From: an uncultured Candidatus Saccharibacteria bacterium
Lineage (GTDB): Bacteria; Patescibacteriota; Doudnabacteria; UBA920
Length of the DNA stretch: 64,000 bases
Direction: 5' to 3'
Assembly (NCBI GenBank): GCA_964512925.1
Contig: CAZEKH010000005.1
Span: forward strand, 4,325 to 68,324
Below the pieces are notes generated by a model. It was not told the DNA's origin. It saw only the letters and a list, made by a program, of their open reading frames with translations, and searched no databases. This document shows positions 6,637 to 62,026 of the stretch, in pieces. How positions within the stretch are numbered: the stretch's first letter is position 1; the number at the start of each line of letters is the position of its first letter. The position numbers and the translations under genes are program-made.

Positions 6637-8472
6637 TTATCTCGCAGCTCTTTTCCTTTGATTCGGGTCCAGGATTTTTTTGCGGATTCTTATAGACAGG
6701 GGAGTTACTTCCATTAGTTCGTCCGGACCTATATACTCCATCGCAAAGTCCATAGTGACTGGCTTATGCGGGGTTAAGATGATGGCATCGTCTGCGCCTG
6801 AAGATCTCATATTGGTAAGTTTTTTGGTTTTGCAGACATTTAGTTCTATATCTTCGCTTAAAGCGTTTTGCCCGACTACCATACCCTGGTAAACTTCCAC
6901 GGCAGGACCTATAAACAAAGTTCCGCGTTCCTGGGCATTGTTAAGACCGTAAGCGTTCGATGTTCCGCTTTCTGAGGCTATGAGCGATCCGTGGTCGTTG
7001 GCGTGTTCGTCTATCTGGTGAGCTGGTTTGTAGCTGTCAAATAAATTATTCAAAATTACTGTGCCGCGGGTGCGGGTGAGCATCAGGTTTTTAAGGCCAA
7101 TCAGTCCGCGGGTGGGGATCAGATATTCTGCGTGGATTTCTCCGGAAGGAGTGGTTTCCATAGTCTGCAGTTCTCCGCCTCTTTTACCCATTTCTTCTAT
7201 CATCACGCCTTGGTACTCGCTGGGCACATCCACTGTGGCTATTTCATATGGCTCCATCCGCACCCCATTTTCTTCGTGGTAAATAACCTGGGGCTGGGAA
7301 ACCTGGAGTTCAAAGCCTTCACGGCGCATCTGTTCTATAAGAACCGCTAAATGTAGTTCTCCTCGGCCGGAAACTAAAAAGCTTTCCGCGCCTTCGGGCG
7401 ACGGGTCAACTTTCATAGCCACATTGGTTTCCAGCTCCTTGTCCAAGCGGTCGCGGATGTTTCTGGAAGTGACAAACTTTCCTTCGCGGCCCGCAAACGG
7501 GGAAGTGTTTACGCCGAAAGTCATCTTGATGGTAGGCGGCTCTATTTCCACCGGCGGCATAGAAACCGGGTTTTGGATGTCGGTTAAGGTGTCGCCGATA
7601 TGGATGTCGTCAAACCCGCCTATAGAGACAATGTCGCCGGCCACCGCTTCGTCCGCATCCACTTTTTTTAAGCCTTCGTACATCTGGAGGGCGGAAATTT
7701 TACCAGTGGTTTTTTCGCCGTTTGGCTTAACTTGGAGGATATTTTGCGCCTTGCTGATTTTGCCGGAAAATATTTTGCCTATACCCATCCTGCCTTTGTA
7801 GTTGTCGTAAGCCAGAGCTAAGACTTGCAAAGCAAACGGTTTGTCAGTCTCGGCAAAAGGCGCGGGGATGTATTTGATGATAGTTTCAAATAGTGGAGAG
7901 ATGTCAGGGGCAGCAGAATTTTTTATCTTCGCCAACAGGCTTTCCAAATTCAAGTCAGCCAAGCCTTTTACTCCGCTGGCGTAGATGATAGGGAAGTCGG
8001 TCTGTTCGTCATTGGCATTCAGCTTTACGAAGAGGTCAAAAGTTTTATTGATGGTTTCGTCAGGGTTTGAGCCTTCTTTGTCCACTTTGTTTATGACCAC
8101 TATGGCTTTCAGTCCCAGCTGTAAAGCTTTTTTTAAGACGAACTTTGTTTGAGGCATCGGACCTTCTTTGGCGTCAACCAAAAGAAGGACTCCGTCTGCC
8201 ATTTTCAAAGTCCTTTCCACTTCGCCGCCAAAGTCCGCGTGTCCCGGGGTGTCTACAATATTGATCTTTACCCCTTTATACACCAAAGATGCGTTTTTGG
8301 CCTTGATAGTGATCCCGCGTTCTCTTTCCAGATCCATACTGTCCATTATCAAATCCGCGGTGTCGTCATTTTTGACAGTCTGGGTTTGTTTCAGCATAGC
8401 GTCCACCAAAGTGGTTTTGCCGTGGTCAACGTGGGCAATGATGGCGATGTTTCTGATGTTGTCTCTTTTCAT
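6637..8472 (-). CDS. typA: translational GTPase TypA/BipA
   Basis: 611 aa; '[16 protein letters not shown]' G1, DTPGHADF G3, NKVD G4; EF-G-like domain order. Confidence 0.9.
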   Translation of the reverse strand: MKRDNIRNIAIIAHVDHGKTTLVDAMLKQTQTVKNDDTADLIMDSMDLERERGITIKAKNASLVYKGVKINIVDTPGHADFGGEVERTLKMADGVLLLVDAKEGPMPQTKFVLKKALQLGLKAIVVINKVDKEGSNPDETINKTFDLFVKLNANDEQTDFPIIYASGVKGLADLNLESLLAKIKNSAAPDISPLFETIIKYIPAPFAETDKPFALQVLALAYDNYKGRMGIGKIFSGKISKAQNILQVKPNGEKTTGKISALQMYEGLKKVDADEAVAGDIVSIGGFDDIHIGDTLTDIQNPVSMPPVEIEPPTIKMTFGVNTSPFAGREGKFVTSRNIRDRLDKELETNVAMKVDPSPEGAESFLVSGRGELHLAVLIEQMRREGFELQVSQPQVIYHEENGVRMEPYEIATVDVPSEYQGVMIEEMGKRGGELQTMETTPSGEIHAEYLIPTRGLIGLKNLMLTRTRGTVILNNLFDSYKPAHQIDEHANDHGSLIASESGTSNAYGLNNAQERGTLFIGPAVEVYQGMVVGQNALSEDIELNVCKTKKLTNMRSSGADDAIILTPHKPVTMDFAMEYIGPDELMEVTPLSIRIRKKILDPNQRKRAAR

Positions 8473-8490
8473 AGTTTTTCAATATAGTTT

Positions 8491-8528
8491 CCCTCCCCAA
8501 GAGTTGGGGAGGGTCAAGGGAGAGGTTG
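8491..8528. repeat. GC-rich nested palindromic element (CCCTCCCCAAGAGTTGGGGAGGG + TCAAGGGAGAGGTTG)
   Basis: perfect 8-bp inner inverted repeat; same family as 5855, 31889, 32284, 59848. Confidence 0.7.
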
Positions 8529-28161: not shown

Positions 28162-28467
28162 ATGAATGAAGGCAAAAACAAGATAACATCAGAAATTTTT
28201 TGGGAAAGTTTTCAAACCAAAAATCCTGAATTAAAAAAGTGCCTCGCAGACCTTGATGCTTATCTGCAAGTAGTTGATTTTGATCAAGTTTCAGAAATTG
28301 ACAAAGAAAGATTTGTGGAGCTAAAAACTTCCATAAGTCAATTTATTGCAGATAAAGAAATACAACACGATCGGGAGGAGTTTGTTGATACTTGGACAAA
28401 AGAATTTGAAGAATTACAACAAAAATATGGAACACCAAAGGTTGCGGCAACTTCAGCAGGAAATTAA
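28162..28467 (+). CDS. hypothetical protein
   Basis: 101-aa acidic ORF. Confidence 0.3.
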   Translation: MNEGKNKITSEIFWESFQTKNPELKKCLADLDAYLQVVDFDQVSEIDKERFVELKTSISQFIADKEIQHDREEFVDTWTKEFEELQQKYGTPKVAATSAGN

Positions 28468-29635
28468 ATATCCTATTTTAGTAAAGAAAAAAGAAAACCT
28501 GGCCTATTTGACTGGCGAGGTTTTTGATTTGCGGACACAGGAGTATCTTTTGGTAAAACCGCTGAAGTACGCGGATAAACGCGGAAGCTATACAGGGGTT
28601 GTTGGGTTTGGCAGCGGTCTGGAAAAAATTTCCTGGGCGCCAAAGTCGGACACTTTATACAACATCGGAAAATATGTGAAAGGCTATGAGAAGTTAAATC
28701 TTGAATATGGGTTTACTTTGGGGGAACATAAGTACATAAAAAGCAAGATCAAGAATTTGAGATTGCAGGTAAAAGTCCAGCCGGAACATTCTCCGGTGGA
28801 TGAGATAAGGCAGATAAAGACCCCGGATGAAATATTGAAGATTAAAAAATCAATGGAAATAGTTAAACAGGTATACAAGTATACTAGGAAGCAAGCGGTG
28901 AAGAGCGGGATGACGGAAGCAATTTTGGCAAAATACATTGAAAATTTGGGTTTAAAGTTGGGGGCAGGCGAGCTGGCGTTTCCGGCCATAGTAGCAAGCG
29001 GTAAGAACGCGGCAATGCCACACCACGTACCTACGAAAAAAAGGTTGAAGCCGGGTGAAAGCATTATTTTGGATTTTGGTTTTTTGGCCGGAGGCCAATC
29101 CGCCACTGGCGGAAAATCTTCATCTAACTACTGCAGCGATTTTACTCGTACGGTTTTTATCAAAAAAGTTCCAAAAAAGCTGGAAATAGCTTATAATCAG
29201 GTGGAGAAAGCTTATTTAGGGAGTATGGAATACATTAACTCCCCCAACCCCCGCCCGAACGCCGCAGGCGGGCAGGCCTCTTTGAAAAAGAGGGAAAAAT
29301 TCACCATCTCCTCCTCTTTGACAAAGAGGAGGCAGGGAGGAGTTCGTGCAGAGGGTGTTTACCAAAAATCAGTCGAGATTTTAGCCGAAAAAAAACTGGA
29401 TAAATATTTTATCCACTCGCTTGGCCATGGTACCGGCCTTGAGATCCACGAAAGGCCTTATTTGGGTCCAAAGTCAAAAGACATTTTAAAAGAAGGAATG
29501 GTTTTCAGTATAGAACCTGGCGTGTATTTTCCCGAGTATGGAGGGGTTCGGATAGAAGATTTGGTCTATATGGAAAATGGAAAAGTAAAAAAATTTATAG
29601 AAGTACCAACAGATTTAAAGTCTAATATTTTATGA
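28427..29635 (+). CDS. M24 family metallopeptidase (Xaa-Pro aminopeptidase-like) with in-frame palindromic insertion; start uncertain (ORF opens at 28346)
   Basis: 'HSLGHGTGLEIHERP', 'FSIEPGVY', 'VRIEDLV' M24 metal-ligand motifs. Confidence 0.65.
   Translation: MEHQRLRQLQQEIKYPILVKKKENLAYLTGEVFDLRTQEYLLVKPLKYADKRGSYTGVVGFGSGLEKISWAPKSDTLYNIGKYVKGYEKLNLEYGFTLGEHKYIKSKIKNLRLQVKVQPEHSPVDEIRQIKTPDEILKIKKSMEIVKQVYKYTRKQAVKSGMTEAILAKYIENLGLKLGAGELAFPAIVASGKNAAMPHHVPTKKRLKPGESIILDFGFLAGGQSATGGKSSSNYCSDFTRTVFIKKVPKKLEIAYNQVEKAYLGSMEYINSPNPRPNAAGGQASLKKREKFTISSSLTKRRQGGVRAEGVYQKSVEILAEKKLDKYFIHSLGHGTGLEIHERPYLGPKSKDILKEGMVFSIEPGVYFPEYGGVRIEDLVYMENGKVKKFIEVPTDLKSNIL
29237..29344. repeat. composite palindromic element inside the M24 peptidase gene (three hairpins: CCGCCCG..CGGGC, CCTCTTTGAAAAAGAGG, CCTCCTCTTTGACAAAGAGGAGG; outer arms AACTCCCCC/GGGAGGAGTT)
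   Basis: 108 nt (36 codons) encoding NSPNPRPNAAGGQASLKKREKFTISSSLTKRRQGGV. Confidence 0.65.
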
Positions 29636-31888: not shown

Positions 31889-31925
31889 CCTCTCCAAGTT
31901 TGGAGAGGGGTTAGGGGAGAGGTTG
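31889..31925. repeat. nested palindromic element (CCTCTCCAAGTTTGGAGAGG + GGTTAGGGGAGAGGTTG) whose 3' arm supplies the SD for the next gene
   Basis: GGGGAGAGG ends 7 nt before the ATG at 31930. Confidence 0.65.
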
Positions 31926-31929
31926 TTGT

Positions 31930-32277
31930 ATGAAACGCAAGCCATATTTAGTACATAACGCAAAAAATTTAAGAACGCGTTCAACTATATGGGAAACAAA
32001 ACTTTGGCAATATTTGAGAGGCGGTAGATTTTTTGATTATAAATTTAAAAGACAAGTTGCTATAGAAAAGTATATCGTAGATTTTTGTTGCAATGAAAAA
32101 AAGTTGATCATTGAGTTGGATGGGAGTGGATATCAATTTTCAGAAAAAGATAAAATTCGTGATAAATTTTTTGAAGGGCTAGGTTATAAAATCTTACGTA
32201 TTTGGAATAATGATATTGACAATAATTTTGACGGGGTTCCATTAAGAATTAAACAAAATTTCGATGAAAAAAAATAA
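31930..32277 (+). CDS. DUF559/Vsr-like endonuclease-domain protein
   Basis: 115 aa; 'FKRQVAIEKYIVDFCC...LIIELDGSGY...RDKFFEGLGYKILRIWNND' matches the DUF559 restriction-endonuclease-like fold pattern. Confidence 0.6.
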   Translation: MKRKPYLVHNAKNLRTRSTIWETKLWQYLRGGRFFDYKFKRQVAIEKYIVDFCCNEKKLIIELDGSGYQFSEKDKIRDKFFEGLGYKILRIWNNDIDNNFDGVPLRIKQNFDEKK

Positions 32278-32283
32278 ACAAAA

Positions 32284-32329
32284 ACAACCTCTCCAGGCCT
32301 CCGGCCACCCTCCCCAAACTTGGGGAGGG
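32284..32329. repeat. palindromic element (CAACCTCTCCAGGCCTCCGGCCA + CCCTCCCCAAACTTGGGGAGGGG) immediately 5' of nfo
   Basis: GGGGAGGGG arm lies ~9 nt upstream of the ATG giving MAVGCHVSAAGG. Confidence 0.65.
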
Positions 32330-32338
32330 GAAAGCGGT

Positions 32339-33388
32339 ATGGCTGTGGGTTGTCATGTTTCTGCGGCAGGCGGAGTGTGGAATGCGCCGAAGAATGCAAA
32401 GGATTTAAACTGCGAAACTTTCCAGATATTTACCCGTCCGCCTATGGGCGGACCTGCGCCGAAAATAGACCAGGAGGGAGTAGAGAAATTTAAGATGGAG
32501 ATGGAGAAGTATTATTCTTCATTCCATACAGAAGATGCAGAACCCCTCCCAACCTCCCCTTTGGTAAAGGGGAGGGGTAAGGTAGGTTCCCCCTCTTTTT
32601 CAAAGAGGGGGTTAGGGGGAGTTGGTTTTGTTGTTCACTGCCCGTACATTGTAAATTTTGGTTCAGCAAAGAAAACTACTTTTCACGGATCTATTTCTAT
32701 AGTTTCTGAAGAACTAAAAAGGGCTAATTCGCTTGGAGCTCGGTTTGTTATGACTCACTTAGGCAGCTTTAAGGATTTGGGCCAGGAAAAAGGTATGGTG
32801 CAGGCGCAAAAAGGTTTGGAAGAGGTTTTAAAAAAGTACGAAAGTTCTATAAAAAACAAACAGCCCTCCCAATTTCTTTTAGAGATAGCGGCAGGACAAG
32901 GTGAAGTTATAGGTGATACTTTTGAGGAACTGGCCGAGCTTATGGAGCCGCTAAAAAAATACAAAACTTTCGGGGGAATCTGCTTTGACACTCAGCATGC
33001 TTGGTCTTCGGGATATGATATAACCAAAAGCGAATGGGTAAAACAATTTGAGAAGACTATTGGCCTAAAATGGCTGCGGATGAGCCATATAAACGACTCT
33101 AAAGTTGATTTAGGCGGCAAAAAAGACCGTCACGAGCATATTGGCGAGGGGAAGATAGGAGAAAAGGGGATATATAATTTTATTCGAAATTTAAAATTGA
33201 ACCTGCCTGTCGGCAAGGCAGGGATTGAAGATTTAAACACCCTCTCTACCCGAAGCGGGTCCCTTCTCTCCCAGAAGGGAGAGATTAATAATGTTGTCTT
33301 TGACTCTTTTGCCTTGATTTTAGAAACTGAACATGATAAAGTGAAAACAGACATAAAAATCTTAAAAAAATTAAGGGAAAAAATATAA
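32339..33388 (+). CDS. nfo: endonuclease IV (AP endonuclease family 2) with two in-frame palindromic insertions; longer ORF opens at 32264
   Basis: 'VGCHVSAAGGV', 'ICFDTQHAWSSGYD', 'RMSHINDSK..DRHEHIGEGKIG', 'ALILETE' match Nfo metal-ligand blocks. Confidence 0.8.
   Translation: MAVGCHVSAAGGVWNAPKNAKDLNCETFQIFTRPPMGGPAPKIDQEGVEKFKMEMEKYYSSFHTEDAEPLPTSPLVKGRGKVGSPSFSKRGLGGVGFVVHCPYIVNFGSAKKTTFHGSISIVSEELKRANSLGARFVMTHLGSFKDLGQEKGMVQAQKGLEEVLKKYESSIKNKQPSQFLLEIAAGQGEVIGDTFEELAELMEPLKKYKTFGGICFDTQHAWSSGYDITKSEWVKQFEKTIGLKWLRMSHINDSKVDLGGKKDRHEHIGEGKIGEKGIYNFIRNLKLNLPVGKAGIEDLNTLSTRSGSLLSQKGEINNVVFDSFALILETEHDKVKTDIKILKKLREKI
32541..32625. repeat. double-hairpin element inside nfo (CCTCCCCTTTGGTAAAGGGGAGG and CCCCCTCTTTTTCAAAGAGGGGG)
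   Basis: 85 nt encoding PLPTSPLVKGRGKVGSPSFSKRGLGGVG between conserved KY..S and (I/V)xxH..Y(L/I)xN(L/F)G blocks. Confidence 0.7.
33201..33288. repeat. triple-hairpin element inside nfo (CCTGCC..GGCAGG, ACCCGAAGCGGGT, TCTCTCCCAGAAGGGAGAGA)
   Basis: ~88 nt encoding LPVGKAGIEDLNTLSTRSGSLLSQKGEI, extra relative to E. coli Nfo between GEGxIG and ILETI blocks. Confidence 0.6.
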
Positions 33389-48538: not shown

Positions 48539-48620
48539 AACATATATCCTTGGCCTTTGATTTTTAAGCTTTTTCAGATTTTACCTATTTTTTTAAGTGC
48601 TTTTTATCTCAGTCTCTGTT

Positions 48621-48644
48621 GTCATTCCCGCGAAAGCGGGAATC
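48621..48644. repeat. TCCCG/CGGGA hairpin element (GTCATTCCCGCGAAAGCGGGAATC)
   Basis: 8-bp perfect stem. Confidence 0.5.
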
Positions 48645-48704
48645 TAAGTTTGAGAGAATTTTCGGTACTAACAGATATAAACTGTTTTTCTGTGGAAAAC
48701 TGCA

Positions 48705-48733
48705 TTTGACAAGTTTTTGCTAGGGGTATAATA
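48705..48733 (+). promoter_or_regulatory. near-consensus sigma70 promoter (TTGACA-N15/17-TATAAT)
   Basis: gcatTTGACAagtttttgctaggggTATAATat. Confidence 0.55.
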
Positions 48734-48739
48734 TATATA

Positions 48740-48893
48740 AAATCTATGCAAAGAAATTTTTCCCACAACCTCATTATTTCTCTCCCGGTCGTCAAGACCT
48801 GGGTGTTTAAAATGCGGGGTAGTGTGGGAAAGAAAAGATAACAGTAGTATAAGTAAAGTTTCCACACCATACCCCGCAAAGAGCGGGTTTTTT
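48740..48893 (+). ncRNA. candidate ~150-nt small RNA between the consensus promoter and an intrinsic terminator (identity unknown)
   Basis: no credible ORF or SD; TTTCCCACAACC pairs GGTAGTGTGGGAAA with alternative partner TTTCCACACC; terminator CCCCGC-AAAGA-GCGGG + T7 at 48871..48893. Confidence 0.35.
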
Positions 48894-49010
48894 TCTGGGT
48901 AAGAGAAACTTAGAGAAATAGAATGTTAGAGAATTAGAGAGATAGAGTGTTAGAGAGGAAGAAAGTTAGCAAAGTAGATAAAATGAACTTTAAAAATTTT
49001 TTGTAGTTTT

Positions 49011-49128
49011 ACCCCCTCTCCCGTGTGGGAGAGGGTTGGGGTGAGGTTTCAGCGATGGTAATAAAACCAAGGTTTGTTATTATCAAACATTATTACCTCA
49101 CCCTAGCCCTCTCCGTGATCGGAGAGGG
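49011..49128. repeat. symmetric composite of two palindromic elements in opposite orientation around an AT-rich inner hairpin
   Basis: CCCTCTCCCGTGTGGGAGAGGG+TTGGGGTGAGGT ... ACCTCACCCTAGC+CCTCTCCGTGATCGGAGAGG. Confidence 0.65.
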
Positions 49129-49475
49129 AATCTGAAAAAGGCTTGAAATATTTATTATTTGTTCTTTAAAACTTAACACCAACCGCCCACAAAAGTTTTT
49201 CCAACAATTGATTTACTGATTATCAGATATTCTGATCAACTTGGAACTTCTTTTGTGTGCAGTCCGTTTGTTTTTATTTCTTTTCCTCCCGCTGGTCGGG
49301 ACGGACACAAGATGGAATCTCATTCCAAAGCACATAAAAACAAAAAAGGCACACGAAAGTTTGGGCAGATCTTGGCTTACCAGCCACTAAAAAATCCCGT
49401 TTTCAAAATTCGGGATTCTGCCCATAGCTATCCGGGCCGCGCAATTTGCTGGCCCATTCGTTCGAGGAGGAAAAA

Positions 49476-49679
49476 GTGGATAGACCAAAGGCATCCACGG
49501 GTGTTGGTCAAAAATTTTGTCAAAGTTGTCGTAGAACTTCAACTTTCATCACCGTGCAAGGTGACGGACATGAGATTGAAGTTTGTGAAAACTGTTTGAC
49601 AAACGGCGAACCAATATCTAGATTCAACGATCCGGATTATGCTTCGGATGTATCGGCCATGAGACTAATCATGGTCTAA
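49476..49679 (+). CDS. hypothetical small zinc-ribbon protein (GTG start after GGAGG SD)
   Basis: 67 aa; CQSC..(17)..CENC; locally GC-rich patch. Confidence 0.3.
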   Translation: MDRPKASTGVGQKFCQSCRRTSTFITVQGDGHEIEVCENCLTNGEPISRFNDPDYASDVSAMRLIMV

Positions 49680-49808
49680 CCAGCAACAGACTTAAAGAGC
49701 AAGTACTTGGGTAGTACCCTGCAATTATACCGCTCTTCAGGTCTTAACCCCGGGGTTCACCAGCTGACCACCATCGGCTAGTGGATCCCGGGCCACTCAA
49801 TTTTTTCT

Positions 49809-49846
49809 TCCTCTCCGTTATCGGAGAGGGTAGGGTGAGGTAACGG
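49809..49846. repeat. palindromic element (CCTCTCCGTTATCGGAGAGG + GTAGGGTGAGGTAACGG)
   Basis: same family, reverse orientation. Confidence 0.65.
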
Positions 49847-50013
49847 ACTCAAAATTCAAATCAGATTTATAAATCATTTAAACTTAAAATCCCCATTTTG
49901 GTTGGGAATGACGGAAAAAACATAAAAATTTCATACCCCCAAAAACCTATTAAATTTTTTGATAAGTTCTTGGGCGCATGAAAGCGCTCGATATTGGTTT
50001 TGTTGGAGGAACA

Positions 50014-50169
50014 ATGAGTGACACTAAACCGCAGGAGCCTGCAATTCGCGCCACAAATAAGGGTCTTAAAAAACCCCGACCACATTACGAGGTCGTAGTA
50101 CACCCGGAAACCCGGAGTGTGGATGTGATCCTAAAACCGTGCGAAGAATGCAAAACCTGCAAGACCTGA
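50014..50169 (+). CDS. hypothetical small Cys-rich protein (C-terminal CEECKTCKT)
   Basis: 51 aa from internal ATG with GGAGGAACAATG SD; followed by strong terminator. Confidence 0.35.
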   Translation: MSDTKPQEPAIRATNKGLKKPRPHYEVVVHPETRSVDVILKPCEECKTCKT

Positions 50170-50179
50170 CAGGTTTTTA

Positions 50180-50252
50180 GGCAGAGCCGCTACTAATTTA
50201 GTCTTTCTTAGACTTTTTTAGCAGAGGCTCTGCCACTATTTTTTTTATTTTT
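50180..50252 (+). terminator. long nested hairpin GGCAGAGCC..AGTCTTTCTTAGACT..GGCTCTGCC followed by T-rich run
   Basis: 9-bp outer stem + inner palindrome + TTTTTTTTATTTTT. Confidence 0.55.
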
Positions 50253-50262
50253 AAATTCGGGT

Positions 50263-50294
50263 GTCAAACTAGTCACATATGTGACTAGTTTGAC
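50263..50294. promoter_or_regulatory. perfect 32-bp palindrome GTCAAACTAGTCACATATGTGACTAGTTTGAC
   Basis: fully self-complementary; architecture shared with 46814..46849. Confidence 0.4.
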
Positions 50295-50308
50295 AGAGGT
50301 TGGGTTTT

Positions 50309-50330
50309 TGGTTGGGATGCTTTGGAATCC
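50309..50330 (-). pseudogene. degenerate copy of the tRNA-Pro 3' terminus
   Basis: TTTTTGGTTGGGATGCTTTGGAATCC vs tRNA TTTCTATGGTCGGGATGCTGGGAATCG. Confidence 0.4.
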
Positions 50331-50452
50331 TTTTCGCTGCGACTCGTAGCCGGGGCGTTATACTCAAGCATTCCAAATAGTCGTGCTTTTCTCATGCACT
50401 TCGATTCCAATAATTTTTATACCAAATAAAAAATACCGAAATTATTTCGGTA

Positions 50453-50473
50453 TTTTTTATTTGGTCGGGATGC
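50453..50473 (-). pseudogene. copy of the tRNA-Pro 3' terminus (acceptor 3' strand + CCA + flanking T-run), 20/21 identical
   Basis: TTTTTTATTTGGTCGGGATGC vs TTTTTTCTATGGTCGGGATGC at 50560..50580; then a non-tRNA hairpin CCCCGAC..GTCGGGG. Confidence 0.5.
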
Positions 50474-50568
50474 CCCGACGACCACTTCGTGATGTCGGGG
50501 TAAACTGGGTATTTCCAACAACCTATAACCATAGAAAAAAGCGCGACACAAGAACACACTTTTTTCTA

Positions 50569-50642
50569 TGGTCGGGATGCTGGGAATCGAACCCAGACTA
50601 CATCCACCCCATGGACGCGTACTACCACTATACTACATCCCG
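50569..50642 (-). tRNA. tRNA-Pro (anticodon GGG), CCA encoded
   Basis: reverse complement: CGGGATG acceptor, D arm GTAT-AGTGGTA-GTAC, anticodon arm CGTCC-ATGGGGT-GGATG, T arm CTGGG-TTCGATT-CCCAG, CATCCCG-A-CCA. Confidence 0.8.
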
Positions 50643-50720
50643 ATTTAAACCTTAGATTAACGATGACTTATAAACTATTTTGTTCAGGTGCTTGTCCGCC
50701 GAAGCCTCGGCGAAGGAGGA

Positions 50721-50744
50721 TACTACCACTATACTACATCCCGA
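50721..50744 (-). pseudogene. 24-nt exact copy of the tRNA-Pro 5' portion (acceptor + D arm), no T arm
   Basis: TACTACCACTATACTACATCCCGA identical to 50620..50643; then hairpin CGCCGAAGCCTCGGCG. Confidence 0.5.
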
Positions 50745-50793
50745 ATTGCAAAACAGATAATATTCTAACAAAACTTAAAGTTATGGGCAAATG

Positions 50794-59847: not shown

Positions 59848-59884
59848 CAACCTCTCCCTGGCCCTCCCCAGGTCTTGGGGAGGG
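59848..59884. repeat. nested palindromic element (CAACCTCTCCCTGG + CCCTCCCCAGGTCTTGGGGAGGG) 18 nt upstream of fusA
   Basis: perfect 8-bp inner inverted repeat. Confidence 0.7.
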
Positions 59885-59902
59885 AAACTATAAAGCAAAT
59901 CT

Positions 59903-62026
59903 ATGGCACGCGAATATTCTATTGAAGTTACTAGAAATATTGGTATCATTGCGCACATTGATGCTGGTAAAACCACTACTACGGAAGGTGTGCTTTTTAA
60001 CACTGGGCAAAAACACAAGATCGGAGCGGTGCACGAAGGCGAAACCACGACTGACTGGATGGAGCAGGAAAAAGAGCGCGGTATAACCATCACCGCGGCT
60101 GCTATCACCTGTTACTGGACCCCTCAGCACGTAAAGCTGGCTCCGGAAACTAAATATAAGATCAACATCATTGACACTCCGGGTCACGTGGATTTTACCG
60201 TGGAAGTGGAACGCAGTTTACGAGTTTTGGACGGCGCAGTTACCGTGTTTGACGGAAAAATGGGCGTGGAGCCGCAATCTGAAACTGTGTGGAGGCAGGC
60301 TGACAAATACGGCGTGCCGCGCATTTGCTCTATCAACAAAATCAACCAAACCGGCGGGGACTTTTACAAGTCTTTGGATTCTATCCATAAACGACTGTCT
60401 CCCAATGCAATGCCAATACAAATCCCGGTTGGGTTTGAAAAAGACATTTGCGGCGTGGTGGATTTGATCCAGATGAAGTCTTACACCTATAAGGATTACA
60501 CGGATAAGCAATTTATAGTCGGCGAAATACCGGCAGATATGTTGGAAAAAGCAAAAGAATGGAGAAATAAACTGGTTGAAAAAGTGGTTGAGTACGACGA
60601 TGCGATGATGGAAAAGTATCTAAGCGGAGTTGAGCTGACTGAAAACGAGCTTTTAACCACCATTCGCAAAGCCACCCAGTCCGGCCAGTTTTTCCCGGTA
60701 ATCGGCGGCGACAACCGCGGTATCATCGTGCAGATGATGCTGGACGCGGTGGTAAACTTCCTTCCAAGCCCGGTAGACCGTGGCCCAGTGAAGGGCGTAA
60801 ATCCGGATACCGAAGCTGAAGAAATAAGAAAGCCGTCTGACGACGAGCCGTTTTCAGCTCTGGCTTTTAAAATCGCCACCGATCCTTTTGTGGGACGACT
60901 GGCTTTCTTCCGCGTATACTCCGGCCATTTGGAAGCTGGAAACTATATTTTGAACGCAACCACCGGCAACAAAGAGCGCGTGGGACGTATCGTGCGGATG
61001 CGCGCCAACGAAAGAGATGAAGTAAAAGAAGTTTTTGCCGGCGACATCTGCGCTTTAGTCGGACCTAAAGATACATTGACAAGCCACACTTTGTGCGACG
61101 AAAAGCATCCTATACTTTTGGGCGCTATCAAATTTGCTGATCCGGTTATCTCTATGTCTATTGAACCGAAGACCAAGGCTGACCAGGAAAAGATGGGTAT
61201 TGCGATGCAGAAGCTGGCGGAAGAAGATCCGACTTTTAAAGTCTCTACCAACGAAGAAACCCAGCAGACTATCATCGCGGGTATGGGCGAACTGCACCTA
61301 GAAATTTTAGTGGACAGGATGCGCCGCGAGTTTAAGGTGGAAGCCAATGTCGGGGAGCCGGAAGTGGCATATAAAGAAACTATCAAAAAGACCGCAGAAG
61401 CTGAAAGCAAATACATCCGCCAGTCTGGCGGACGCGGACAGTACGGCCACGTATACCTTCGCATTGAACCTCAGGAACGCGGCAAGGGGTATGAATTCTT
61501 GGACGAGATCGTGGGCGGTGTGATCCCGAAAGAATACATCAAGCCAATAGATAAAGGCATCCAGGAGTCTGCGGCCAACGGCGTTATTGCCGGATATCCT
61601 TTGGTTGACTTTAAGATCGCTTGTTATGACGGAAGCTACCACGAAGTTGACTCTTCGGAAATGGCTTTCAAAATCGCGGCGTCCAAGGGACTTCAGGAAG
61701 TTGCTAAGAGGGCAGACCCCATCCTTCTTGAGCCAATTATGAAAGTGGAAGTTATTACCCCGGAAGCCAATATGGGAGATGTTATAGGCGACCTAAACGC
61801 CAAACGCGCAAAAATAGACGAGATGACTGACAGAATGCATCTTAAAGTCATCAAAGCTCAGGTGCCTTTGGCTGAAATGTTCGGTTATGCTACAACCTTG
61901 AGAAGCATGACTCAGGGACAAGCTTCCTATACTATGGAATTTGACCACTACGAAGAAGTAGGAAAAAATATCACTGCCAAAATAGTAGAAAAGAGGCAGG
62001 GGATAAATGTGAGAAAGGGCATGTAA
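59903..62026 (+). CDS. fusA: elongation factor G
   Basis: 707 aa; 'AHIDAGKTT', 'DTPGHVDF', 'NKID' (as NKIN), domains II-V. Confidence 0.92.

Follow-up and report, generated by a model that had tools for sequence, protein, structure and literature searches.

Repeats of the BoxC type, also known as PIT motifs, are said to have been treated in papers by Bergler in 1992 and by Hoyne and Maher in 2000. Under the collective name BoxC/PIT/triplex motif (TM) repeats, they were already recognized in 1992 and are found in several hundred genomes, and their function, origin and mobility mechanism are not established. The BoxC/PIT/TMECO motif has the layout CCCTCNCCC-N3-6-GGGNGAGGG-N3-GGGNGAGGG, with a second loop that is often TTA, forms a triplex in vitro, and has been counted at 3610 copies across 262 proteobacterial genomes (PMC4666352). 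In E. coli, which carries five inverted TM pairs, the motifs mark rearrangement-prone loci and are described as "always intergenic", without promoter or terminator activity and with no mobility gene nearby (PMC4666352); Holder et al. 2015 report that they themselves never encountered a mobility activity near TM repeats (PMC4666352). A second kind of selfish repeat, the Rickettsia palindromic elements (RPE), forms in-frame translational fusions with host open reading frames (ORFs) (review PMC10969869). Here we analyzed a 64-kb stretch of contig CAZEKH010000005.1 (hereafter the window) from a Doudnabacteria-like member of the Patescibacteria, with a G+C content of 40.5% and about 82% coding sequence, in which the endonuclease IV gene, nfo, carries palindromic DNA inside two of its loops and directly upstream. 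We found that the elements of the window are members of the known BoxC/PIT/TMECO intrastrand triplex motif family, showing an RPE-like behavior in a new host group, and that the unit upstream of nfo is one end of a repeat-flanked cassette that carries a predicted nuclease gene of the DUF559 family.

The window contained 25 hairpins in which the 5' arm is pyrimidine and the 3' arm purine, as compared with a mean of about 0.65 in 20 shuffled sequences, a roughly 38-fold excess, and the pattern CCYCYCC-N6-GGRGRGG was matched 19 times against 0.84 expected. The stems were mostly perfect and 8-11 bp long, and each hairpin was accompanied on one or both sides by an arm of 9-12 nt, either G-rich on the 3' side (e.g. 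GGGGAGAGGTTG), C-rich on the 5' side (CAACCTCTCC), or both. The complete unit, 35-90 bp in size, consists of a polypyrimidine arm, a loop, a polypurine arm, a short loop or mini-hairpin, and a G-rich third strand mirroring the purine arm. The unit at 31889-31925 is a perfect mirror case (CCTCTCCA-AGTT-TGGAGAGG-GGTTA-GGGGAGAGG). A third-strand mirror match of at least 85% was found in 7 of the 25 hairpins, in comparison with 0.6% in the control, and most units showed a one-sided mirror match of at least 7/9, the unit at 33265 being weaker (5/8). The relaxed published TMECO pattern gave five exact matches in the window (49015, 49096 on the minus strand, 49810, 8492, and 59851 on the minus strand) and none in 100 shuffles. 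The units thus show the structural characters of the family, namely an 8-10-nt G/C-rich stem with a 3-6-nt loop, a second loop followed by a mirror G-rich third segment, and a dispersed multi-copy excess. The folding energies given below refer to Watson-Crick pairing only, and the triplex formation of the window units is predicted from the sequence. Rfam scans, at gathering thresholds for the whole window and at E-value thresholds for 48.5-50.8 kb, returned tRNAs only and no family for the hairpins.

The exclusively intergenic location known from E. coli K-12, which lies outside the structural definition of the family, was not observed in the window. Thirteen of the 25 hairpins were located in ORFs: four in nfo, two each in TGT, MetRS and TatD, one each in the M24 peptidase and LeuRS genes, and one that is a doubtful case. 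Because about 82% of the window is coding, this indicates that the hairpins are depleted from genes and yet far from excluded. Every intragenic copy preserved the frame of its host gene, introduced no stop codon into that frame and had a net length that is a multiple of three, and the encoded peptides varied with the reading frame. As compared with solved homologues, the repeat sites account for a gain of about 33 aa in TGT, 46 aa in TatD and 36 aa in LeuRS. The likeness to BoxC/PIT/TMECO covers the design, the near-sequence and the dispersed, multi-copy occurrence at variable loci, including inverted pairs; the differences are that about half of the window hairpins lie in frame inside essential genes instead of between genes, that the host is a 40% G+C member of the Patescibacteria and not one of the 262 proteobacterial genomes of the TMECO census, that many units have C-rich and G-rich arms together, on the 5' and 3' side respectively, or else a loop 2 that contains a mini-hairpin, and that a DUF559 gene lies between inverted units. 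In-frame insertion into unrelated coding genes (nfo, TGT, M24 peptidase, MetRS, TatD and LeuRS) is instead shared with the RPEs (Ogata et al. 2000; PMC10969869), which are likewise selfish palindromes located at fold-compatible sites of many unrelated housekeeping genes, add peptide segments, and have no known transposase (PMC10969869). This is an analogy only: RPEs are Rickettsia-specific, about 100-150 bp long, encode conserved peptides and are unrelated in sequence, whereas the window units are pyrimidine/purine mirror-palindromes of about 35-90 bp with triplex potential and a nuclease-gene association, and showed neither the size nor the conserved peptide of RPEs and gave no Rfam or other match. 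The Correia, ERIC and RUP elements, which are MITEs (transposable elements of the miniature inverted-repeat kind) that change how adjacent genes are expressed, resemble the window elements in being small non-autonomous palindromes, often just 5' of genes; it is to this class that the idea of a repeat-borne ribosome-binding site belongs, but a promoter or ribosome-binding role is unsupported for the window elements.

The nfo gene (32339..33388, plus strand, as annotated by NCBI) encodes an endonuclease IV (deoxyribonuclease IV) of 349 aa. The protein scored 189.3 bits against TIGR00587 (cutoff 129.65) and matched Pfam AP_endonuc_2 (PF01261) and PDB Nfo chains at about 1e-33, and by these matches it can be regarded as a genuine member of the endonuclease IV family. 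The nine metal ligands are all present, in invariant columns (H100, H140, E182, D217, H220, H250, D263, H265 and E329); on the basis of the alignment and the E. coli residue numbering, we take them to be equivalent to H69, H109, E145, D179, H182, H216, D229, H231 and E261 of E. coli Nfo. An alignment-based AlphaFold2 (AF2) model gave a TIM barrel with a predicted local distance difference test score (pLDDT) of 82.8 and a predicted template modeling score (pTM) of 0.82, in which the pLDDT fell below 50 only at aa 68-93 and 292-321, that is, in the two inserts. Both inserts were placed in helix-to-strand loops of the model, which in TIM barrels generally lie on the face opposite the catalytic strand ends, here away from the metal site. 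The translated inserts are probably disordered segments, rich in Pro/Ser/Leu and Gly/Lys/Arg/Glu, and the insert-bearing Nfo would most likely stay active.

Insertion 1 (32535..32625, plus strand) consists of the arm GAACCCCTCCC, hairpins at 32553-32575 and 32589-32611, a TTA loop and the arm GGGGGAGTTG, and encodes approximately AEPLPTSPLVKGRGKVGSPSFSKRGLGGVG. Its hairpin unit (32541-32625) comprises two perfect 10-bp hairpins bracketed by complementary outer arms, with a folding energy of -50.2 kcal/mol for the insertion, and is positioned between the helix of residues 45-58 and the strand of residues 97-100. Insertion 2 (33202..33288, plus strand), between the helix of residues 274-288 and the strand of residues 325-328, consists of a hairpin at 33202-33222, a C-rich arm (33238-33247), a mini-hairpin (33248-33260) and the hairpin TCTCTCCC-AGAA-GGGAGAGA (33265-33284), and encodes a segment including NTLSTRSGSLLSQKGEINNV. 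Perfect pyrimidine-arm/purine-arm hairpins of the nfo ORF, read from 32339 or from an upstream ATG at 32264 (to 33388), are those at 32308, 32553, 32589 and 33265. An initial annotation of this DNA had described the two internal blocks, with two hairpins at 32541-32625 and three at 33201-33288, and we found them as described, the hairpins of the second block spanning 33202-33284. The same annotation had placed the inserts between blocks that are adjacent in E. coli Nfo, in agreement with alignments to solved Nfo structures, which are interrupted precisely at the first insert, where the query advances from residue 59 to 96 while the chain advances by about 5 residues. It had given their sizes as 28 aa and about 29 aa; the insertions themselves are real, but the net additions are larger, about 34 and 32 aa. 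The hairpin blocks as such are 85 and 88 nt long, and neither length is a multiple of three.

The loops were compared among 119 Nfo proteins of Patescibacteria, 282-401 aa in length. At site 1, the loop after EMEKY is 4 aa long in 77 of the 119 orthologues and up to 58 aa in the others, with 38 aa in the window; at site 2, the loop before LILETEH ranges from 16 to 73 aa, with 48 aa in the window. The loops are therefore not of one length, and most orthologues are without the internal segments. Long and short forms were scattered across a neighbor-joining tree, and site 1 was empty in all nine closest relatives. Four orthologous loci on related contigs (L001, L003, L097 and L098) were compared with the window in detail. 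The site 2 unit is homologous at the DNA level in the window and L097, both of which contain CCCTCTCTACCC...GGGTCCCTTCTCTCCC-GAAA-GGGAGAGA-TAATAA-GTTG, and by this DNA homology it is an old insertion, orthologous with that of L097; in L003 it is degenerate, with no perfect hairpins, in L098 it is short and only one hairpin is left of it, and L001 lacks it altogether. At site 1, the window, L097 and L098 carry differing repeat sequences. The window codons YYSSFH before unit 1 resemble a C-to-T decayed copy of the L097 arm TATTACCCCTCACCCC, and the site looks like a decayed older arm plus a newer unit. Since the states of the two sites differ among the window, L097, L098, L003 and L001, the sites are hot spots of serial gain, decay and loss, a behavior that fits the instability reported for TM loci.

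The initial annotation held that nfo had been invaded three times, counting the upstream element as one of the invasions. Repeat DNA is indeed present at the two internal loops and directly upstream, but the upstream unit belongs to a larger structure that fills the interval between the M16 peptidase gene and nfo. This cassette has the order [hairpin + third strand] - DUF559 gene - [complementary arm + mini-hairpin + hairpin]. The left terminal TM unit (31889..31925, plus strand) consists of the hairpin CCTCTCCA-AGTT-TGGAGAGG, the loop GGTTA and the G-rich third strand GGGGAGAGGTTG, which perfectly mirrors the purine arm (8/8); it ends 4 nt 5' of the DUF559 ATG, and an equivalent unit is present in L097. 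The DUF559 gene (31930..32277, plus strand) encodes 115 aa. The right terminal TM unit (32285..32329, minus strand), the element of the initial annotation, is inverted and consists of the C-rich arm CAACCTCTCC (32285-32294), the mini-hairpin GGCCTCCGGCC (32296-32306) and the hairpin CCCTCCCCA-AACT-TGGGGAGGG (32308-32329). The gene-proximal arms of the cassette form a 12-nt exact inverted match, the right-hand partner being 32283-32294. An "empty" inverted pair at 49014-49128 has the same end-to-end layout as the cassette ends, without the gene.

Related contigs show a conserved synteny of M24-x-M16 peptidase-[variable]-nfo-x-AI-2E-MetRS, and the state of the M16-nfo slot differs among them. 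In L003, the M16 stop lies 12 nt from the nfo start, without hairpin or DUF559, and L001 has two unrelated ORFs in the slot. L097 has this cassette too, again overlapping nfo by 14 nt as in the window, with identities of 60% for DUF559, 80% for M16 and about 65-71% for Nfo. L098 retains the two ends of the cassette and, as a remnant of DUF559, 35 of its codons, and a NUDIX gene lies in between; within 699-1555 of that locus, the remnant follows the left TM unit, the NUDIX hydrolase fills the rest, and the right TM unit lies inside the 5' part of the nfo ORF. This state indicates a cargo replacement within the cassette. The upstream units of the window, L097 and L098 have the common loop CCCCA(A/G)ACTTGGGG. 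Because the three units share this loop and the cassette is found in L097 and L098, the upstream element of nfo is the old right end of the cassette and not a separate recent invasion; by the same comparison the cassette is old, being common to L097 and decaying in L098.

The DUF559 product is a YcjD-like, predicted PD-(D/E)XK nuclease of the Vsr fold, and matched PF04480 at E=1.7e-33 with 115 bits (cutoff 20.6); its match to the NCBIfam YcjD model was below the cutoff. DUF559 has been described as a family of Vsr-like predicted PD-(D/E)XK nucleases of unknown function (PMC1189080). The DUF559 profile detected the structural-genomics entry PDB 3HRL at 2e-37 and, weakly (5e-4), the homing endonuclease I-Bth0305I (3R3P). 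In a PADLOC search, the DUF559 protein gave weak partial matches to large defense proteins and no assignable system.

We found that the repeat flanks of DUF559 are not restricted to the window. The association was measured for the DUF559 subfamily near the query. Among its relatives in GTDB genomes, 11 of 11 loci were repeat-flanked alike (L008 on the upstream side only); these were from Patescibacteria, a metagenome-assembled genome (MAG) of Pseudomonadota, Goldiibacteriota, Bdellovibrionales and five Marinobacter genomes. In a sample of 80 metagenome loci with 34-71% G+C, where hairpins within 200 nt were counted, a TM-type hairpin was found for 56 of 73 loci on the upstream side of DUF559 and for 46 of 71 on the downstream side, with a density of 4.45/kb near the gene in comparison with 0.24/kb farther out on these contigs. 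The orientation was that of the window cassette, hairpin + G-arm being found upstream in 42 cases versus 12 in the opposite order, and C-arm + hairpin downstream in 37 versus 6. The gene-proximal arms were more complementary within loci than between loci (Mann-Whitney p=1.5e-11), and exact inverted arm matches of at least 12 nt occurred in 20% of the pairs within loci and in 1% of those between loci. In the open-access literature, no paper was found that links DUF559 with these repeats or describes them in Patescibacteria genes.

The type member of DUF559, E. coli ycjD, adjoins fabI/envM; its stop codon coincides with a degenerate hairpin, and a TMECO follows about 170 nt downstream of the gene. 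fabI/envM is reportedly the gene beside which BoxC was first described, in the 1992 paper. Of the 5426 complete E. coli genomes, 3346 contained the segment of ycjD and TMECO, and the others had the eefRABCD operon at that place. The fabI-sapF interval thus occurs in two alternating forms, ycjD + TMECO (K-12, L016, 1351000-1351830) and the eefRABCD efflux operon (O157:H7, L099), and homology between the two forms ends about 55 nt before the TMECO hairpin and about 30 nt before its C-rich arm. A published account puts ycjD "in place of" eef, the operon having been lost independently at least twice (PMC12817139).

The joint explanation that we consider probable is that TM repeats colonize the genome and enter genes in frame at tolerant loops, that the unit upstream of nfo is the end of a DUF559 cassette, and that DUF559 may handle the repeats. 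It builds on what was observed directly: the identity of the repeats, their excess over chance, their in-frame positions, their presence or absence in orthologues, the cassette architecture and the cross-phylum association with DUF559. In such a scheme, dispersed G+C-rich repeats of the BoxC/PIT/TMECO type would colonize a Doudnabacteria-like Patescibacteria genome, and copies in genes would survive only if the net insertion is a multiple of three, stop-free and located in a tolerant surface loop. The DUF559 nuclease would recognize or nick structured repeat DNA, as a hairpin or triplex, and would thereby maintain or mobilize the repeats in the way that RAYT transposases relate to REP/REPIN elements. 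Existing repeats might be preferred sites for further insertions and indels, giving rise to the hot spots seen in orthologues, and the nfo frame would have stayed open through the cassette end, with an N-terminal extension from ATG 32264.

A bolder proposal, which we put forward tentatively and rate at somewhat below an even chance, is that DUF559 supplies the enzyme with which the BoxC/PIT/TM repeats are partnered, that the two form a system of the RAYT/REPIN-like or homing type acting on non-B DNA from E. coli and Marinobacter to Patescibacteria, and that in the reduced Patescibacteria the repeats colonized essential genes and reshaped loops and N-termini, as in Nfo. The likeness to REP/REPIN-RAYT lies in a single resident enzyme gene with inverted flanks made of genome-dispersed short palindromes that are locus-specific and complementary. 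However, RAYTs are HUH/Y1 enzymes (IS200/IS605-like), while DUF559 has a Vsr-like PD-(D/E)XK fold; the repeats are unrelated, and an activity of DUF559 on them is putative. I-Bth0305I, an EDxHD Vsr-like homing endonuclease (3R3P), is likewise a small Vsr-fold nuclease domain tied to DNA mobility, but it is encoded within a group I intron of a phage and carries additional DNA-binding regions, in contrast to the free-standing, TM-flanked DUF559 protein of about 110 aa.

Several points weigh against these explanations. The repeats are not intrinsically ORF-friendly, with 3.24 stop-free frames per repeat as compared with 2.99 for random 50-mers, and the in-frame copies must therefore be ascribed to selection and not to design. 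The internal units of nfo have an arm-hairpin-arm arrangement that is permuted relative to the cassette ends; thus, they are not simple MITE-like deletion derivatives of the cassette. No target-site duplication was recognizable, the filled and empty sites compared being too diverged. Of the conserved core D...E-x-D-G-x-x-H, the window DUF559 protein retains D51, E62 and D64 but has Tyr in place of the nearly invariant His68: the protein reads ELDGSGYQ (32122-32130, codons 65-67), as compared with ELDGGQH in 11 of 12 relatives, and the L097 orthologue keeps the His. Judged from this substitution, the window copy may be catalytically impaired or inactive. The repeat association concerns only the DUF559 subfamily near the query, as stated above. 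E. coli strains without ycjD at fabI-sapF still match the TMECO segment elsewhere, so that repeats can persist without that ycjD copy. Finally, that the inserts are translated, that Nfo has kept its activity, at which codon nfo starts, and that DUF559 acts catalytically on the repeats are points that we infer rather than observe.

One alternative regards DUF559 as a free-standing homing endonuclease gene that targets inverted TM pairs and inserts between them, using the repeats as plentiful landing sites without mobilizing them. The cassette does resemble a gene dropped inside an inverted TM pair, an empty pair exists at 49014-49128 and five pairs exist in E. coli, the DUF559 profile detects I-Bth0305I, cassettes are found in differing genomic contexts in related genomes, and ycjD replaces the eef operon in at least two independent E. 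coli lineages. However, the M16-nfo cassette has been kept at one locus across lineages in which M16 is only 80% identical, and so it looks resident rather than invasive; there is one copy in 64 kb, this alternative leaves the spread of repeats into genes unexplained, and we regard it as rather unlikely. That the extra segments of Nfo arose by lineage-specific loop expansion or low-complexity drift of the protein, and not from repeat DNA, would agree with the variability of the insertion sites in many orthologues, with their near-continuous length range, and with segments that have no perfect hairpins, such as site 2 of L003. Such drift would not, however, be expected to give perfect 8-10-bp pyrimidine/purine palindromes with mirror arms, designed like the intergenic copies and like those in five other genes, in G+C-rich islands within a 40% G+C genome and at a roughly 38-fold excess over shuffles, nor would it lead different lineages to carry different sequences at one site; this view is very improbable. 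Patescibacteria rRNA genes are known to contain intervening sequences, and the elements form very stable RNA structures (-35 to -50 kcal/mol), so that one might suppose that RNA excision, ribosomal bypass or protein splicing removes them and leaves a mature Nfo without inserts. Removal would not require the intragenic copies to be all in frame, stop-free and of a net length of 3n, as they are; Pfam/Rfam scans gave no intron, intein or Rfam signature, decayed copies are still in frame, and the analogous Rickettsia elements are translational fusions (PMC10969869). We consider such removal extremely improbable. Although the source is an uncultured, MAG-type contig, an assembly or binning artifact can practically be discounted, as the same architecture is present in independent assemblies made by different projects (L001, L003, L097, L098, 11 GTDB genomes and 80 metagenome contigs), recurs in E. 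coli genomes that are finished, and leaves reading frames intact.

The start codon of nfo was a further point on which readings diverged. According to the initial annotation, nfo starts at ATG 32339, with GGGGAGGGG, the upstream element's purine arm, serving as a Shine-Dalgarno (SD) sequence co-opted from a selfish repeat. The geometry is correct: GGGGAGGGG ends at 32330, 8 nt 5' of ATG 32339, the GGAGG at 32324-32328 lies 10 nt before this ATG, and the start yields MAVGCHVSAAGG, the canonical Nfo N-terminus, and is the one annotated by NCBI (349-aa form). It is also correct that the longer ORF from 32264 reads through the palindrome, giving a possible N-terminal extension of 25 codons (32264..32338, plus strand; MKKNKQKQPLQASGHPPQTWGGESG). 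We compared both starts with 46 ATG-start genes of the window, using positions -20 to -1 for A+T content, positions -30 to +30 for folding energy, and a 5-mer as the SD-like motif, the host 16S anti-SD lying outside the window. An SD-like 5-mer preceded 6 of the 46 genes, as compared with 3% of random positions; this approximately 4-fold enrichment suggests some SD use, but 40 of the 46 genes are without one. The 46 genes averaged 79% A+T and -4.6±2.8 kcal/mol, with a minimum of -10.2. ATG 32264 resembles them (80% A+T, -1.6 kcal/mol), whereas ATG 32339 has 35% A+T and -25.4 kcal/mol, a fold about 7.5 standard deviations past the gene mean, with GGGGAGGG sequestered in a perfect stem of 9-10 bp. 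The element-less orthologues, nfo of L001 and L003, have no GGAGG-type SD. L097 and L098 carry the same element at the same place, and IGCHVS follows it without an intervening in-frame ATG, GTG or TTG; in these loci the element must therefore be translated, unless a non-canonical start is used. ATG 32264 overlaps the 3' end of DUF559 by 14 nt, and the overlap is identical in L097. These data do not support the co-opted ribosome-binding site, which is probably wrong, and the start at 32339 with such a site is unlikely. We prefer initiation at 32264, possibly coupled to DUF559 translation, by which the element would probably become a 25-aa N-terminal extension. More generally, the A+T-rich, unstructured 5' contexts and few SD motifs of the window genes suggest mostly SD-independent initiation. 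In the window (region 31914-31932), the left TM unit has its G-rich third strand (GGGGAGAGG) about 4-8 nt before the DUF559 start, and the same holds for L005, L006, L015 and L097, in several phyla. Because it is unpaired in the RNA hairpin, this strand could serve as an SD for DUF559 itself; if any gene draws its SD from a repeat, it could be this one.

The DUF559 family is very large; a structure has been solved for it but its function is not known, and its oriented, locus-specific flanking by BoxC/PIT/TM repeats across phyla joins two long-standing unknowns in a way that can be tested directly. If the association is functional and unreported, it offers a testable answer on how the repeats are handled and on the role of DUF559. 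The in-frame spread of selfish palindromes, described mainly for Rickettsia, extends to Patescibacteria with a different repeat family. This bears on gene calling, with regard to start codons and inflated protein lengths, on structure prediction, and on the protein insertions typical of these lineages.

Some further features of the window were noted. In the M24 peptidase ORF (28346-29635), GC-rich palindromes in addition to the TM hairpin at 29310 are found at 29240-29345 (e.g. CGCCGCAGGCGGGC and CCTCTTTGAAAAAGAGG), and Pfam divides the M24 domain of this peptidase into two stretches; the M24 peptidase genes of L001 and L003 also contain TM hairpins. A gene-poor stretch of about 2 kb (48540-50750), which also contains the inverted TM pair 49014-49128 and a single TM unit at 49810-49840, lies beside tRNA-Pro(GGG) (50569-50642, minus strand). 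An ORF between these TM units (49255-49599) was suspected to be a second DUF559 gene and was rejected, having no Pfam match. A 27-nt 5' part of the tRNA-Pro gene is duplicated at 50721-50747 (96%), and further copies of its 3' end, GGTCGGGATGC, are found near 50300, 50453 and 50560; these duplications look like scars of repeated integration at the tRNA gene. Upstream of the EF-G and BipA/TypA genes (regions 59849-59905 and 8470-8527, minus strand), a [C-rich arm + hairpin] unit ends 18 nt before the ATG, and both units are followed by a similar AAACTATAnnGnAAAnCTATG, which may be a 5' leader common to the two genes or a further part of the element.

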